Of a stretch of 64,000 bases of DNA, positions 8,281-15,966 are shown one piece after another. The translations under genes were made by a program, and so were the position numbers. The stretch's first letter is position 1; each line of letters begins with the position of its first letter. The DNA comes from an uncultured Gammaproteobacteria bacterium (GTDB lineage: Bacteria > Patescibacteriota > Microgenomatia > CAZETR01 > Amesbacteraceae): assembly GCA_964633995.1 (NCBI GenBank), contig CAZWKN010000001.1, positions 56,218 to 120,217 on the forward strand. The letters run 5' to 3'. The notes under the pieces were generated by a model, which searched no databases, was not told where the DNA came from, and saw only the letters and a list, made by a program, of their open reading frames with translations.

Positions 8281-8507
8281 CTAAGCAGCAAATTTGGCAG
8301 ACCATTGCTTTGGATTTAAAAAGGGCGGCTAACTATATGGCAGTGGGCAGTAAGAGCAAGGCTGACTACTACCTGAATGAGGCTAAAAGTTTGTATGAAA
8401 CACAAGAGGTTGGGGGGGGCATGAAGAAAATCGAGCGATTTATTAAGTTTGATGGGAACGCTGAGGATCTATTGCTTTCGGGGTGTCTGATTTCGACTAG
8501 GGTTTAG
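8262..8507 (+). CDS. Hypothetical protein
   Basis: 81-aa ORF overlapping the previous stop. Confidence 0.3.
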   Translation: MVVKFMTKQQIWQTIALDLKRAANYMAVGSKSKADYYLNEAKSLYETQEVGGGMKKIERFIKFDGNAEDLLLSGCLISTRV

Positions 8508-8749
8508 TGTTATTTTCTTGTTCAACGTCAGTCTTAAGACCATGGCCAAGTTCCTGAAGGGCATTTTCTTTAAGGGTACTCCCATCTCTAAAGAATGGAA
8601 GATTGAAACCAAATCCGGTTCGCGAGGCGACTATAATAGCCATGACAAACCTACCCATCTTTTCCAATCTTTCTTTCCAACCAGTGGTAGGCACACTTTC
8701 AGTCATGGCTATATTGTAACCGGAATAATGCTCGCTGTCAAACTATAGG

Positions 8750-9156
8750 TCTAAATGAGAGGGCTGTGAGCCATTTCGTTTTTACATTTAGGACATTTCA
8801 TAAACTATCTGACTTAAGTTAGCAGATGATATTATTGATGGCAATTTTGCAGCCCTGGATGGAGGACATTCGAACCTATTGTGCACAAATTTGACAGATT
8901 ATAGGGATGGGTGGTACCATTCGTCTACAATTTGCAAAAGCGGTGAGAGTGCTCGCAACACTTTAGCTGAGGCAGGAAATGGCCTACGGGTAAGCCCGTG
9001 ATAGCAGTAAATGAGGAGACTCAAACAGTTCGTCAAGGTTTAACGACTGTTTTTTAGTTTTTGAGTCTCGAAAATAGGGTGGTACAGCGATAACGCTTCG
9101 AGTCGCCCCTTTTGGATCTAAGGTTTTTTGCTTTGGATACAAGAGGGGCGATTTTT
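8750..9156 (+). promoter_or_regulatory. Candidate T-box-like riboswitch leader. It has two GGGTGGTAC motifs (8908-8917, 9081-9089) and a GC-rich hairpin (9103-9110 pairs with 9142-9151) plus a T-tract ending at the ATG at 9157.
   Basis: The 400-nt ORF-free leader contains AAATAGGGTGGTACAGCG, matching 16 of 18 positions of the canonical T-box sequence AATTAGGGTGGNACCGCG. The downstream 8-bp GC stem TCGCCCCT/AGGGGCGA includes the SD-like GAGGGG and is followed by TTTTT and then ATG. Confidence 0.4.
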
Positions 9157-10077
9157 ATGATTAGTACTGAAATACATAAATTTGAGCAGCAGTTGGCCAG
9201 AGAGCTAACGCCAGAGTTGGCGGGTGTGTACGTGCAAGGGCTTCTAAAGACTGTAGAAAATGTGGAAAAAGGTGTCGATTGGCATTTTAATTTGGGGGAA
9301 AAGTTGTATGGCCCATTAATAGTGGGGTACGTCGAGTGGTTGGAGAAAAAAGTAAATGAGGTTGGTCATCAGGGGAATGTATATTTTGCCTTGCGGGACG
9401 CTGCTCCTCTAATGACGGCAGCTGAAATCATGTGGCAAGGAAAGACTCTTAAATCGGTTGGGGTGTATGTTAACCGGCCTCTGCTGGGAGTGGATGACGA
9501 AATTGCACCAGAAAAAGCTAAGGTGAATGGCGACATGAAAGCCTATTTGCAAGGTTTGGAGATAACCGGTGCGGAAAAAGTGATTTGGTCGGATACAGGG
9601 GCTTGGGGAACTGTGGTTAAGATGATGAAGCAAACCGGGTTGGTTCCAGGAAACCTTTATCCTTTATTTTGGTATAGCCACAATCCACACATACCGGGAT
9701 ATTTGAATGAATTGTTGGTTAAAGAAGGTTTGCCGGAGAAATTTGGTGAGGTGATTAATGATTCATTGGAATGTGTGTTTCCTCAGCAATGGTTACGACC
9801 ATTGGAGTTAGCATCGGTTCAGGGTGACTGGCAACCAAAATTGTTGCCGGCTGATGGTTTGTCTCGTTTGTGGGGACAGGCGGCTTTGACTGGAGTAGCT
9901 GAGGCGGCGAAGCATAGCCGGGAAGTTGTGTCGGAAGATAAGGCGATAAACCATCTGTATAAGCTACATCAAGAGGCGAAGATGGGGTTTTGCACTGGAG
10001 TACTGGCGGAAAATACTCCAACCTGGTCAAATGGAGAACAGTTTTTAGCTGAATGGTCGGAGGATTTATTACCATGA
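9157..10077 (+). CDS. Hypothetical protein (first gene of the putative regulated operon)
   Basis: The track ORF 9112..10077 starts at TTG. The ATG at 9157 (MISTEIHKF...) directly follows the hairpin and T-tract. No motif recognised. Confidence 0.5.
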   Translation: MISTEIHKFEQQLARELTPELAGVYVQGLLKTVENVEKGVDWHFNLGEKLYGPLIVGYVEWLEKKVNEVGHQGNVYFALRDAAPLMTAAEIMWQGKTLKSVGVYVNRPLLGVDDEIAPEKAKVNGDMKAYLQGLEITGAEKVIWSDTGAWGTVVKMMKQTGLVPGNLYPLFWYSHNPHIPGYLNELLVKEGLPEKFGEVINDSLECVFPQQWLRPLELASVQGDWQPKLLPADGLSRLWGQAALTGVAEAAKHSREVVSEDKAINHLYKLHQEAKMGFCTGVLAENTPTWSNGEQFLAEWSEDLLP

Positions 10078-10844
10078 GTAAGAAAATGATTATTGGGATG
10101 TTGCATTTGGGAGATTTGTTGGGGGATCTGGATGTGGTGGTTGAAAAAGCCTTGTTTGATATAAATGCTTTGCAGAAGGGGGGCATAGACGGGATATTGA
10201 TTGAGAATTGGAAAGAAAAATCGGTGGGTGAGACGGTATCGGTAGAAACGGCCAAGAATATGGCCGTTGTAGCAGAGAAATTAGTTAATGATATTAAAGT
10301 GCCATTTGGATTTAATGTGCTTAATAATGACTATAAAGTGGCGTTTGGGTTGGCTAAGCAGTTTGGGGCGGCATTTGTGGAGCTGGATGTGTTTGTAGAC
10401 ATGGTGAGGAGTAAGTTTGTAAGCAATTTAGAGGCGAAAGCGCACCCGTTTGTAATTGATCCTAAGCCAAGTGAAATCATAAGCTGTGCGACGGTGCCGC
10501 TGTGGTCGTTTGTTCAACCCAAACATTATGAAATGCTGGATAAGGGGAAAACTATTGAGAAGTCAACTCAGCAGGCCATAGAGGCTGGAGTGGCGGCAGT
10601 TATAGTGACAAAGGCTACTGGAGTGTCGCCAACTTTGGAATTGGTAAAGAGAGTTAAAAAGGTAGCAGGAGAGACGCCAGTGGGAATTGGCAGCGGCTTA
10701 AATGAGCAAAATGCTCAAGAGCTGCTTCAAGTGGCTGACTTTGCAATTGTGGGAACGTATTTTAAAATAAATGGAATGGTTGATAATCCAGTGGATGTTA
10801 ATAGGGTAATAAAGTTAATGAAAAAGGCAAGACAGGAACTATGA
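10074..10844 (+). CDS. BtpA/SgcQ-family TIM-barrel protein (tentative)
   Basis: The N-terminal MIIGMLHLG resembles the BtpA family IGxxHL start. Overlapping stop/start with the neighbours suggests an operon. Confidence 0.45.
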   Translation: MSKKMIIGMLHLGDLLGDLDVVVEKALFDINALQKGGIDGILIENWKEKSVGETVSVETAKNMAVVAEKLVNDIKVPFGFNVLNNDYKVAFGLAKQFGAAFVELDVFVDMVRSKFVSNLEAKAHPFVIDPKPSEIISCATVPLWSFVQPKHYEMLDKGKTIEKSTQQAIEAGVAAVIVTKATGVSPTLELVKRVKKVAGETPVGIGSGLNEQNAQELLQVADFAIVGTYFKINGMVDNPVDVNRVIKLMKKARQEL

Positions 10845-11194
10845 AAAATATAGCTATTAAGTCAACTATAAAGTTGGATGATTTGGAGAAGGTAGACATT
10901 CGTGTGGGGACAATTGAAAAAGTAGAGGATGTGATGGGTTCAGATAAGCTGGTGAAATTAAGCGTTAATTTTGGTGACTTTAAGAGACAGATATTGGTGG
11001 GAATGAAACAAGAGAGGGAAAACCCTAGGGAGATTGAAGGTAAACAGGCGTTGTTTGTAGTCAACTTGGAGCCGAGAAAGATGGCCGGAGAAATGTCAGA
11101 AGGAATGTTGTTTGATATCGGGTATGCGAATGGGATTACGCCAGTATTGGCAGTTCCAGAGGTACAAGTGCCGGATGGGGTAATTGCGGGATAG
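10841..11194 (+). CDS. tRNA-binding domain protein (CsaA/Trbp111/EMAP-like OB fold)
   Basis: LDIRVGTI...KVEDV...KL....DFG motif pattern typical of the tRNA_bind (Myf) domain; 117 aa. Confidence 0.7.
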   Translation: MKNIAIKSTIKLDDLEKVDIRVGTIEKVEDVMGSDKLVKLSVNFGDFKRQILVGMKQERENPREIEGKQALFVVNLEPRKMAGEMSEGMLFDIGYANGITPVLAVPEVQVPDGVIAG

Positions 11195-15891: not shown

Positions 15892-15966
15892 TGGAGCCGG
15901 GAGGGAATTTTGCAATCCCGACCTGAGCTTTACAAAAGCCCTGCTCTACTTCTGAGCTATCCCGGC
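15892..15966 (-). tRNA. tRNA-Thr (anticodon TGT), CCA encoded, non-canonical T-loop
   Basis: Acceptor GCCGGGA/TCCCGGC, TA, D-arm GCTC-AGAAGTA-GAGC (no GG), anticodon stem GGGCT/AGCTC with loop TTTGTAA, T-arm GGGAT-TGCAAAA-TTCCC with a U·U mismatch and no TΨC, then T and CCA. Confidence 0.6.

Follow-up and report, generated by a model that had tools for sequence, protein, structure and literature searches.

The leader at nt 8934–9113 of the 64-kb stretch of DNA analysed here (the window) is a genuine, unusually stripped-down T-box riboswitch of a Patescibacteria (CPR) bacterium. The whole region from nt 8927 to 9156 is probably an arginine-responsive T-box leader, with an intrinsic terminator as its output and, at this locus, an additional occlusion of the Shine-Dalgarno (SD) sequence. 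This reading draws on the anatomy of the leader, its conservation and covariation among related loci, two mutually exclusive folds, and a gene context linked to arginine (Table 1).

The entire window was scanned with covariance models of all 4,227 Rfam families. The T-box model (RF00230) matched end to end at nt 8934–9113 with 46.8 bits (E-value 4e-9 locally, 3.7e-7 for the whole window and 4,227 families), its first position falling on nt 8934, and this was the sole T-box in the window in the permissive scan. The T-box assignment of the original prediction is supported by this full-length match, as it is by the conserved anatomy and covariation described below, but the score lies below the RF00230 gathering score of 93, so that a scan of the window at the gathering threshold finds no T-box and only permissive scans reveal it. 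The low score arises because Stem I has been cut to a short hairpin. Another 15 loci gave sub-threshold matches to the same model (28–61 bits) 5' of the orthologous gene, and more than 20 distinct loci of Patescibacteria have the same leader in that position. The T-box core precedes every homolog of at least 40% identity for which enough upstream DNA is available, and is absent from distant homologs. Judged from these homologs, the host is a member of the Patescibacteria (Microgenomates type), and not of the Actinobacteria, whose T-boxes had originally been cited as the parallel.

Table 1. Features of the T-box leader and its operon (nt positions in the window).
Feature	Position	Strand	Details and basis
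Predicted sigma-70-type promoter	8891–8920	+	Consensus scan, 10/12 plus TG
Promoter boxes	8891–8896; 8912–8920	+	-35 TTGACA; spacer 18 nt; extended -10 TGgTACCAT
Probable leader 5' end	8927–8939	+	Conserved ACAATT, then A-rich T-box model start; conserved position in homologs
Ultrashort Stem I	8940–8969	+	Rfam alignment, full-leader MFE, covariation
Apical Specifier loop CUCGCAA (7 nt)	8952–8958	+	Arg specifier CGC 8954–8956; trailing purine A8957
Reduced Stem II	8970–8985	+	AGGC/GCCU around purine-rich loop AGGAAAUG; Rfam alignment, MFE
Stem IIA hairpin ACGGG-UAAG-CCCGU	8986–8999	+	Rfam alignment; fits T-box consensus CGG...CCGUNA
Stem III	9016–9069	+	Outer helix 9016–9024 / 9061–9069; inserted inner hairpin 9025–9050, loop CAAGGUUUA; MFE, Rfam alignment
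T-box sequence AAAUAGGGUGGUACAGCG	9072–9089	+	16/18 consensus; high posterior probability in Rfam alignment
Antiterminator (ON state)	9076–9110	+	A1 AGGG 9076–9079 / CCCU 9107–9110; A2 GCGAU 9087–9091 / GUCGC 9102–9106
Intrinsic terminator and SD sequestrator (OFF state)	9103–9156	+	Hairpin 9103–9151 plus U5 9152–9156; folding
SD-like GAGGGG in 3' arm of terminator hairpin	9143–9148	+	Read from sequence
ORF1, 306 aa, uncharacterised Patescibacteria family	9157–10077	+	Fold of CriT-like PRPP-dependent ribofuranosyl-phosphate transferase
BtpA/SgcQ-family TIM-barrel protein	10053–10844	+	PF03437 at 9e-44, TIGR00259; start overlaps ORF1 end
Stand-alone tRNA-binding domain protein (Trbp111/CsaA/MetRS C-terminal type), last gene of the unit	10841–11194	+	PF01588 at 8e-18

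A score below the gathering threshold, a Stem I that is mostly missing, and an operon that lacks an aminoacyl-tRNA synthetase (aaRS) gene in the window would also be expected of a T-box remnant that is decaying or has lost its function, or of a chance match to the core, in which case the hairpin would be an ordinary constitutive attenuator or the terminator of an upstream unit. The chance that this is correct is very slim, as Stem I, A1 and A2 show compensatory changes over more than 20 divergent loci while the loop and bulge motifs remain invariant, the whole-window E-value is 3.7e-7, the leader fold has a z-score of -4.4, and a dedicated promoter lies directly upstream. In an alignment of 16 leaders, 98.3% of cells pair compared to 30–54% in slid registers (the helices were chosen by eye, which inflates the paired percentage); both sides change in 8 of the 11 pairs, and none of 500 shuffles reaches the observed score.

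The core of the riboswitch closely follows the T-box consensus. The sequence AAATAGGGTGGTACAGCG (nt 9072–9089) differs from AATTAGGGTGGNACCGCG at two positions, exactly as had been noted before. The window holds no other match at that level; 8 of 100 shuffles yield one. The conserved T-box sequence (AAUUAGGGUGGNACCGCG) is present, with UGGN situated in a 7-nt bulge (UGGUACA, nt 9080–9086) between helices A1 (4 bp) and A2 (5 bp), both of which covary across the 16 leaders. The spacing of A2 and A1, previously regarded as non-canonical, is canonical in its geometry. Within the bulge, UGGU (nt 9080–9083) is predicted to pair with the 3' ACCA of a tRNA. Taken alone, the antiterminator has a folding energy of only -7.7 kcal/mol and therefore needs tRNA to compete. 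The small GCG-ATAA-CGC hairpin reported to follow the T-box is present at nt 9087–9096 and belongs to the OFF conformer.

At the base of Stem I is a short helix, joined by an imperfect internal loop resembling a K-turn (GGUGAG/UUA) and by a hairpin (AGAGUG, nt 8946–8951 / CACUUU, nt 8959–8964) that is predicted by the full-leader MFE structure and whose closing pairs all covary (4 of 4, 16 leaders). There is no distal T-loop platform, 76 Stem I positions of RF00230 being replaced by 7 nt in the alignment; this platform is missing also from accepted Actinobacterial T-boxes (PMC7583486). Folded in isolation, Stem I can also adopt another pairing (GUGAG/CUCGC, -9.0 kcal/mol), in which the codon would be buried. 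The K-turn region reads GAUGAG/UUA in leader L051, the closest relative, and the canonical GAUGA...GGA in L001–L005, and two further leaders (L035 and L040) carry a canonical long Stem I 5' of the orthologous gene. The 4-bp hairpin that follows Stem I lacks AGUA and presumably takes the role of Stem II; at this position the homologs have short hairpins with loops (C)AAAAU or AGGAAAU. Stem IIA is kept as ACGG...CCGU in relatives, and inspection of the leader by eye disclosed no convincing partner (IIB) for a Stem IIA/B pseudoknot. The insert in Stem III, CGUCAAGG...ACG, is conserved in L001–L005, L020, L054 and L055.

A specifier codon, CGC, is displayed in the Stem I loop. Across 19 leaders the loops (Stem I loop or side bulge) read N-U-CGC-R or U-CGA-G, and the CGC/CGA frame is the only one that is synonymous (Arg) throughout, with a purine always next to it. 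The -1 frame would specify Ser in 17 leaders and Pro in 2, and the +1 frame Ala in 14 and Glu in 5. The probability of the specifier being unpaired is 0.89 in this leader (family mean 0.79, background 0.43), and unconstrained MFE folding leaves the triplet single-stranded in 15 of 19 leaders. In T-boxes with a short Stem I, a specifier in the apical loop is an established feature (PMC7583486), and the preference for CGC/CGA fits the bias of Arg T-boxes towards 3'-C and 3'-A (PMC7778990). In the long Stem I of L035 and L040 the specifier loops are GAAA-AGA-G and GAAA-AGG-G, both Arg; a Lys frame (AAG) may be read from the sequence alone, and was set aside because an arginyl-tRNA synthetase (ArgRS) gene follows the leader in L035. 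A 'CGA-A' pattern match in L035 proved to be an artefact spanning the stem and the S-turn GAA, and was excluded from the specifier set. Leader L001 is without a clean CGN-R triplet, its side bulge reading (U)GAG.

The riboswitch most likely senses uncharged arginine tRNA, and both the binding of a tRNA and its identity as tRNA-Arg are inferred. From UGGU or UGGC in the bulge, the discriminator base of tRNA-Arg is predicted to be A73 in this host and G73 in the genomes of L001–L005 and L031. The window contains no tRNA-Arg gene; two tRNA-Arg(UCG) genes of other CPR genomes carry A73, a base that UGGU could accommodate. The loop also holds UCG and GCA/GCG frames, and tRNA-Ala carries A73 and tRNA-Glu G73, so that UGGU would suit tRNA-Ala, and UGGC in the UCGAG group tRNA-Glu. 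A T-box read in another frame, and specific for Ala (GCA/GCG) here, Ser (UCG), or Glu (GAG) in the UCGAG group, is nevertheless highly unlikely. Orthologous leaders would then differ in specificity, since those frames vary among them, and the codon would often be without a trailing purine. In addition, L031 (GCA with UGGC) and L055 (GAG with UGGU) violate the discriminator correlation, and the synthetase encoded in cis is ArgRS, never AlaRS, SerRS or GluRS. A link to the adjoining tRNA-Trp was also considered and rejected: the gene is on the opposite strand, the loop has no UGG, and the discriminator is G.

The alternative folds that the original prediction proposed to look for are the antiterminator and the terminator hairpin, which are mutually exclusive, the 5' arm of the hairpin reusing the 3' strands of A2 and A1 (nt 9103–9110). 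The hairpin is built of two helices, of 12 and 8 bp, separated by a 2x2 internal loop (-31.7 kcal/mol), and the OFF state has a folding energy of -38.9 kcal/mol versus -19.2 kcal/mol when the antiterminator is enforced. An 8-bp stem had been described here earlier; its 5' strand TCGCCCCT (nt 9103–9110) was correctly placed, but its partner AGGGGCGA occupies nt 9144–9151, the earlier start at nt 9142 adding two paired bases. This stem is part of the much longer hairpin. The SD-like GAGGGG, the TTTTT and the ATG at nt 9157 are all as previously stated, and L051 has AGGAGGGG at the position of GAGGGG.

Equivalent hairpins followed by U4–7 are present in the 21 distinct leaders with a cleanly folded 3' end (about -11 to -35 kcal/mol, most of them -21 to -35), and were also recognised by eye in L054 and L055; for leaders with internal U-runs and for L053–L055, the antiterminator and terminator strands were assigned by hand. 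About 16 of 23 orthologous leaders have a separate SD and start codon 15–200 nt beyond the U-run. Together, the U-runs and the SDs beyond them point to a family that would act mainly by transcription termination. This is mechanistically unexpected with an ultrashort Stem I, because rapid capture of tRNA by transcriptional T-boxes generally depends on the platform of a long Stem I (reviewed in PMC7583486).

SD sequestration had been the mechanism originally favoured, and at this locus the SD does sit in the competing hairpin, but the U5 tract and the roughly 16 of 23 leaders with distant SDs indicate that it is not the sole mechanism. A purely translational T-box, with a hairpin that only sequesters the SD and an incidental U-run, on the model of the ultrashort-Stem-I ileS leaders of Actinobacteria, would account for GAGGGG in the 3' arm, for an AUG only 5 nt past the hairpin, and for the similar arrangement, with the SD inside the hairpin, in L051, L018/L019, L020, L021 and L025. 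It would also agree with all ultrashort Stem I T-boxes described earlier, which are translational, and with the stated need of transcriptional ones for a long Stem I (PMC7583486). Against this, the U-tract recurs across the cleanly folded leaders, the more distant SDs and start codons are out of reach of sequestration, a tRNA gene separates the hairpin from the ORF in L006, and a hairpin of this stability with U5 is a textbook intrinsic terminator; the purely translational alternative is thus unlikely. Termination as the main output, with control at this locus presumably divided between termination and SD occlusion, is preferred.

Upstream of the leader, the -10 box falls in register with those of orthologous leaders (TATACT/TAATAT/TATAAT), all of which precede the conserved ACAATT, and L051 retains TTGACA-18-TACCAT. 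It is likely from this conservation that the promoter is used and that transcription starts near nt 8927–8939. The leader would then be transcribed with the Stem I hairpin presenting the Arg codon and its stacking purine in an anticodon-loop-like CUCGCAA, followed by the small Stem II, Stem IIA and the elaborated Stem III. Uncharged tRNA-Arg would pair through its anticodon (ICG/ACG type) with CGC, and through its free 3' ACCA with UGGU in the T-box bulge; this would stabilise the weak antiterminator, and RNA polymerase would read into ORF1, BtpA and the tRNA-binding protein gene. With charged tRNA-Arg, the antiterminator would not be stabilised, nt 9103–9110 would join the long hairpin, and the hairpin together with U5 would end transcription just before the AUG. 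By burying the SD as well, the same hairpin may provide a second, translational layer of control at this locus.

The downstream genes are those given in the original prediction: ORF1, for which no Pfam match was found, a BtpA protein, and a tRNA-binding protein whose best NCBIfam match is the MetRS C-terminal domain, with tRNA-Trp adjoining on the opposite strand. The BtpA gene adjoins ORF1 in nearly all of 57 loci. That the operon has no aaRS or amino-acid gene holds true for the window, where the operon has neither ArgRS nor a recognisable arginine gene and ArgRS is absent from the window as a whole, but not for its relatives. In at least 12 of these, the operon continues into ArgRS, confirmed by Pfam in L001, L004, L020 and L035, and identified by tblastn or precomputed Pfam in L002, L005, L027/L056, L030, L031, L034/L057, L054, L055 and the P0024 contig. 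In L020, the gene for the tRNA-binding protein lies between BtpA and ArgRS, and the operons of L005 and L055 include ornithine carbamoyltransferase (OTCase). Together with the Arg specifier, this context suggests that the leader most likely ties the conserved ORF1-BtpA pair, both of them uncharacterised enzymes, to arginine or tRNA-Arg metabolism.

Canonical transcriptional T-boxes (RF00230; Bacillus tyrS, glyQS) share with this leader the T-box in a 7-nt bulge between A1 and A2, an antiterminator that competes with a U-tract intrinsic terminator, a codon-plus-purine specifier, the Stem IIA consensus, a Stem III flanked by purines, and control of an operon that contains an aaRS gene (here in relatives). 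The leader differs from them in lacking the distal bulge/loop platform (IDTM), in an apical specifier instead of one in a side bulge, in its reduced Stem II and conserved Stem III insert, in its CPR host, and in family scores of 28–61 bits against 93. Firmicutes Arg T-boxes (one argS copy in Bacillus cereus, PMC2494555; TBDB, PMC7778990) are alike in the Arg class, in 3'-C/3'-A specifiers and in ArgRS cargo (in relatives), but have a long canonical Stem I; the first genes here are a homolog of CriT-like PRPP transferases and a BtpA-family protein, and ArgRS is outside the operon at this locus.

A structural parallel is seen in the ultrashort-Stem-I T-boxes of Actinobacterial ileS leaders (Sherwood et al. 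2015; M. tuberculosis, Nocardia 6UFG, 6UFM; PMC7583486), which likewise have a short hairpin with an apical specifier and a 3' purine, no elbow-binding platform, extra insertions in the discriminator domain (Stem III), and an SD in the competing helix (as at this locus). Located 5' of ileS in Actinobacteria, those leaders act on translation and are specific for Ile (AUC; PMC7583486), whereas the Patescibacteria family is predicted to be Arg-specific (CGC/CGA), has a hairpin with U-tract and an SD mostly outside it, and has orthologous members in which Stem I is of intermediate or full length. Of the features of the Actinobacterial class II, the apical specifier in a short Stem I is present here, a sequestrator without terminator is not (U5 follows the hairpin), and cargo and host also depart from that class (ORF1-BtpA with or without ArgRS, CGC/CGA, Patescibacteria).

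No report of T-box regulation in the candidate phyla radiation was found in the literature consulted, and it appears to be undescribed because the scores are far under the Rfam gathering threshold and the TBDB sought T-boxes with short Stem I in Actinobacteria only. As a possibility rather than an expectation, the Patescibacteria may have their own Arg T-box lineage, in which Stem I was reduced stepwise from the canonical form, by way of a short-capped side bulge, to an apical hairpin resembling an anticodon loop, the output remaining an intrinsic terminator, and the CPR-wide CriT-like/BtpA pair may represent an unrecognised arginine-supply or tRNA-Arg-directed, PRPP-dependent enzyme system. 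If so, the elbow-binding platform would not be strictly needed by transcriptional T-boxes, and its loss would perhaps be compensated by the conserved Stem III insert or by tRNA-binding proteins encoded in cis. The coupling of an ultrashort Stem I to a terminator calls into question the view that fast tRNA capture by co-transcriptional T-boxes depends on a long Stem I, and the leader family would offer a natural, testable series of Stem I reduction. Riboswitch specificity may also serve as a tool of annotation, linking the BtpA family, the function of which has long been unclear, and the CriT-like transferase homolog to arginine or tRNA-Arg. CPR organisms are thought to be without most amino-acid biosynthesis, and the arginine link is therefore a concrete biochemical hypothesis.

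One further motif of the region was interpreted differently. A copy of GGGTGGTACC was noted upstream in the original prediction and is indeed present, but at nt 8909–8918, one position off the range first given (nt 8908–8917). The 64 kb hold exactly two copies of its 9-mer GGGTGGTAC (nt 8909–8917 and 9077–9085), which lie within 170 nt of each other; 0.30 copies are expected by chance, and 4 of 100 shuffles reach two. The pair could suggest a tandem or bipartite T-box, with the upstream copy as a second site for binding the tRNA acceptor end. This is scarcely credible, and the candidate was rejected: the upstream copy falls inside the promoter spacer and -10 box, so most of it would not be transcribed, and it has no Rfam match, no flanking A1/A2 helices and no preceding Stem I. 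Only the closest relative, L051 (83% identical), has this copy in common with the window, all other orthologous leaders being without it.

The original prediction proposed a T-box-like leader ahead of ORF1 (nt 9157–10077), to be checked against the Rfam T-box model, RF00230. At the gathering threshold, Rfam reports four tRNAs only across the whole window and no T-box, but a permissive scan gave a single T-box match in the whole window. This alignment is full-length (nt 8934–9113) and scores 46.8 bits against a gathering score of 93, with E = 4e-9 when only the region is considered and 3.7e-7 when the whole window is set against all 4,227 families. The score is low because 7 nt stand in for 76 Stem I positions of the model. 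The string AAATAGGGTGGTACAGCG (nt 9072–9089) has two mismatches to the T-box consensus and is the sole match within three mismatches in the window. The GC stem, U5 run and ATG at nt 9157 noted originally are all present, with positions shifted by 1–2 nt. The concern that the motif is a common repeat was checked, and GGGTGGTAC occurs just twice in the 64 kb (nt 8909–8917 and 9077–9085). Judged by its sequence, the element appears to behave like a T-box.

The upstream motif copy could represent a second T-box, but this was rejected. The copy, GGGTGGTACC, falls within the spacer and -10 box of a sigma-70-like promoter, and among orthologous leaders the string GGTGGTACC is kept only by locus L051, an 83%-identical relative; it is therefore regarded as a promoter coincidence. 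At the equivalent position the orthologous leaders carry a -10 box (TATACT, TAATAT or TATAAT) followed by a conserved ACAATT. A divergent near-consensus promoter (nt 8713–8741, minus strand; TTGACA, 17 nt, TACAAT; 11/12) ends 6 nt short of the ATG of an ORF of 69 aa without a Pfam match (nt 8497–8706, minus strand), a distance that suggests a leaderless transcript.

Features of the ORF1 leader in the window
Feature	Position (nt)	Description
Sigma-70-like promoter	8891–8896; 8912–8920	-35 TTGACA, 18-nt spacer, TG-n-TACCAT; just 5' of the leader
Stem I (short)	8940–8969	Capped by 7-nt loop CUCGCAA
Stem II	8970–8985	4 bp, purine-rich loop
Stem IIA hairpin	8986–8999	Agrees with T-box consensus
Stem III	9016–9069	Contains inner hairpin; T-box domain comes next
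Antiterminator		AGGG/CCCU, 7-nt bulge UGGUACA, GCGAU/GUCGC around 10-nt loop; canonical
Terminator hairpin	9103–9151	12 + 8 bp, -31.7 kcal/mol; then U5 and AUG

Nucleotides 9103–9110 are common to the antiterminator and the terminator hairpin. Folding gave -38.9 kcal/mol for the terminator (OFF) state versus -19.2 kcal/mol with the antiterminator (ON) enforced, which is normal for T-boxes, whose ON state needs tRNA. The spacing of helices A1 and A2 had been thought non-canonical; with both helices and the 7-nt bulge in place, it is not. The GCG-AUAA-CGC hairpin described previously is built from the 5' strand of A2 and is found beside the terminator in the OFF-state minimum free energy (MFE) fold. 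The inner hairpin of Stem III (nt 9025–9050; loop CAAGGUUUA at 9034–9042) contains a conserved CGUCAAGG...ACG motif common to loci L001–L005, L020, L054 and L055, while in other leaders the corresponding site holds another conserved module, GUGUCGGAAACGGAGC. This insert might make up for the absent Stem I platform.

ORF1 has no Pfam or NCBIfam match, and its AlphaFold model is confident (pLDDT 91.7). Its 62 homologues are all metagenomic, the named ones belonging to the Patescibacteria group, Gottesmanbacteria and Microgenomates. The records of several Patescibacteria-like contigs (L001, L003–L006, L009) bear the title 'uncultured Gammaproteobacteria bacterium', which is probably either a placeholder or a wrong taxonomic label given to binned MAGs. 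Among 57 fetched loci, the T-box core GGTGGNAC precedes ORF1 in every homologue of at least 40% identity with enough upstream DNA, and is absent upstream of ORF1 in Parcubacteria-type loci (30–35% identical). RF00230 gave sub-threshold, full-model matches (28–61 bits) in 15 further loci. In an alignment of the hairpin of Stem I with A1 and A2 from 16 distinct leaders, 98.3% of cells paired versus 70.5% when shuffled and 30–54% in slid registers; the helices were picked by eye, although the loop and bulge, being invariant, set their register. Both-sided changes occur in 8 of 11 pairs, including all four of Stem I.

The orthologous leaders form a natural, graded series along which Stem I becomes reduced, while the terminator is always kept. 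Stem I is full length with canonical distal motifs in L035 and L040 (RF00230 ~60 bits), presents the specifier in a side bulge beneath a short cap in L001, L003 and L004 (UCGAG in the latter two), and carries an apical-loop specifier in the window and most other leaders. In 17 leaders it is a hairpin with a freely varying stem and the loop GUCGCGA, CUCGCAA, UUCGCAA, CGCA or UCGAG. Together with L003 and L004, the CGC/CGA frame reads Arg in 19/19 leaders, always with a purine next, while shifted frames give Ser or Pro (-1) and Ala or Glu (+1); a match in L035 was an artefact and was left out. In unconstrained folds of these 19 the triplet is unpaired in 15 MFE structures, with a mean unpaired probability of 0.79 versus 0.43 over all nucleotides. 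The specifier-loop 3' strands of L035 (GAAA-AGA-G) and L040 (GAAA-AGG-G) would also specify Arg, provided that the codon sits directly against the terminal purine; AGA is favoured over AAG (Lys) in L035 because its unit includes ArgRS. In T-boxes with a short Stem I, a specifier placed in the apical loop and trailed by a purine is an established arrangement (PMC7583486), and Arg T-boxes reportedly prefer C- or A-ending specifiers (PMC7778990).

Gene context gives independent support for an Arg specifier. The leader-ORF1-BtpA unit continues into ArgRS in L001, L002, L004, L005, L020, L027/L056, L030, L031, L034/L057, L035, L054, L055 and the P0024 contig, a further relative, with ornithine carbamoyltransferase intervening in L005 and L055. 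GNAT and M20-peptidase genes lie within the unit in L023/L052, L029 and L053, and ArgRS adjoins even in L010 and L015, loci without a T-box. The closest relative after L051, L020, has the order ORF1-BtpA-tRNA_bind-ArgRS; the window has the first three of these genes, and no ArgRS across its 64 kb. ORF1 and BtpA are neighbours in nearly all loci across Patescibacteria, and the unit repeatedly includes stand-alone tRNA-binding proteins (tRNA_bind, B3_4). The window's example (nt 10841–11194), first called CsaA-like, scores best with the MetRS C-terminal (Trbp111-type) tRNA-binding domain rather than CsaA chaperone models; its L020 orthologue immediately precedes ArgRS. No link between BtpA and arginine was found in the literature searched, and the leader provides a helpful clue to the function of two uncharacterised protein families.

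A hairpin with U4–7 after it is predicted at the end of all 21 distinct leaders that gave a clean 3'-end fold; its energy is about -11 to -35 kcal/mol, with most values between -21 and -35. L054 and L055 show the same pattern by eye. In about 16 of 23 leaders, a Shine-Dalgarno (SD) sequence and start codon lie 15–200 nt past the U-run (GAGG in L001, AAGGAGG in L002, GGAG in L003, AGGAG in L031, AGGAGG in L035/L040). From these arrangements we infer that the family would act mainly via transcription termination. The SD sequestration originally predicted holds insofar as the window SD lies in the hairpin 3' arm, but not for those 16 or so relatives. In the window, L051, L018/L019, L020, L021 and L025 the start codon comes directly after the U-run and the 3' arm contains the SD, so SD occlusion is plausible there as a second layer. 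The T-box bulge reads UGGU in the window, for which A73 would be expected on the cognate tRNA, and UGGC in L001–L005 and L031. In bacterial tRNA-Arg the discriminator base is generally A or G, and both available CPR tRNA-Arg(UCG) genes have A73.

The leader thus combines the T-box bulge helix, a competing terminator, Stem IIA, Stem III and a codon-plus-purine specifier fitting the cis aaRS of its relatives, and lacks the long-Stem-I platform and an above-threshold Rfam score. Unlike class II T-boxes, it has neither SD-only control, nor ileS cargo, nor an Actinobacterial host; by ORF1 homologues and lineage confirmation, the host belongs to Patescibacteria. An Arg T-box is the probable explanation, and the element is best filed as a structural and taxonomic variant from Patescibacteria: a T-box of the terminator type, specific for Arg, whose ultrashort Stem I has the specifier in its apical loop. 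An ultrashort Stem I with a terminator is unexpected, since transcriptional T-boxes are stated to need an elbow-binding platform (PMC7583486). No report of T-boxes in CPR was found in the literature searched, and TBDB sought short-Stem-I T-boxes in Actinobacteria only. While not categorically new, the element clearly extends T-box biology to CPR, and in a way that can be tested.

Several tRNA genes were noted alongside. In L006 (nt 1037–1112; also L036–L038), a tRNA-Cys(GCA) gene separates the T-box terminator from the ORF1 homologue; its position 33 is C rather than U, and it would fall under the control of the Arg T-box too. In L007 (nt 1680–1880) and L011 (nt 1204–1350), which have no T-box, a tRNA-Arg(UCG) gene just upstream of ORF1 is followed by duplicated tRNA 3'-end fragments, GGGGGTTCGAATCCCTCCG...GGCAC, that resemble scars left at the attachment site of an integrated element. 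The fourth tRNA of the window (nt 15895–15966, minus strand; Rfam 50.3 bits), missing from the ARAGORN output, has the anticodon loop UUUGUAA, giving UGU (Thr).
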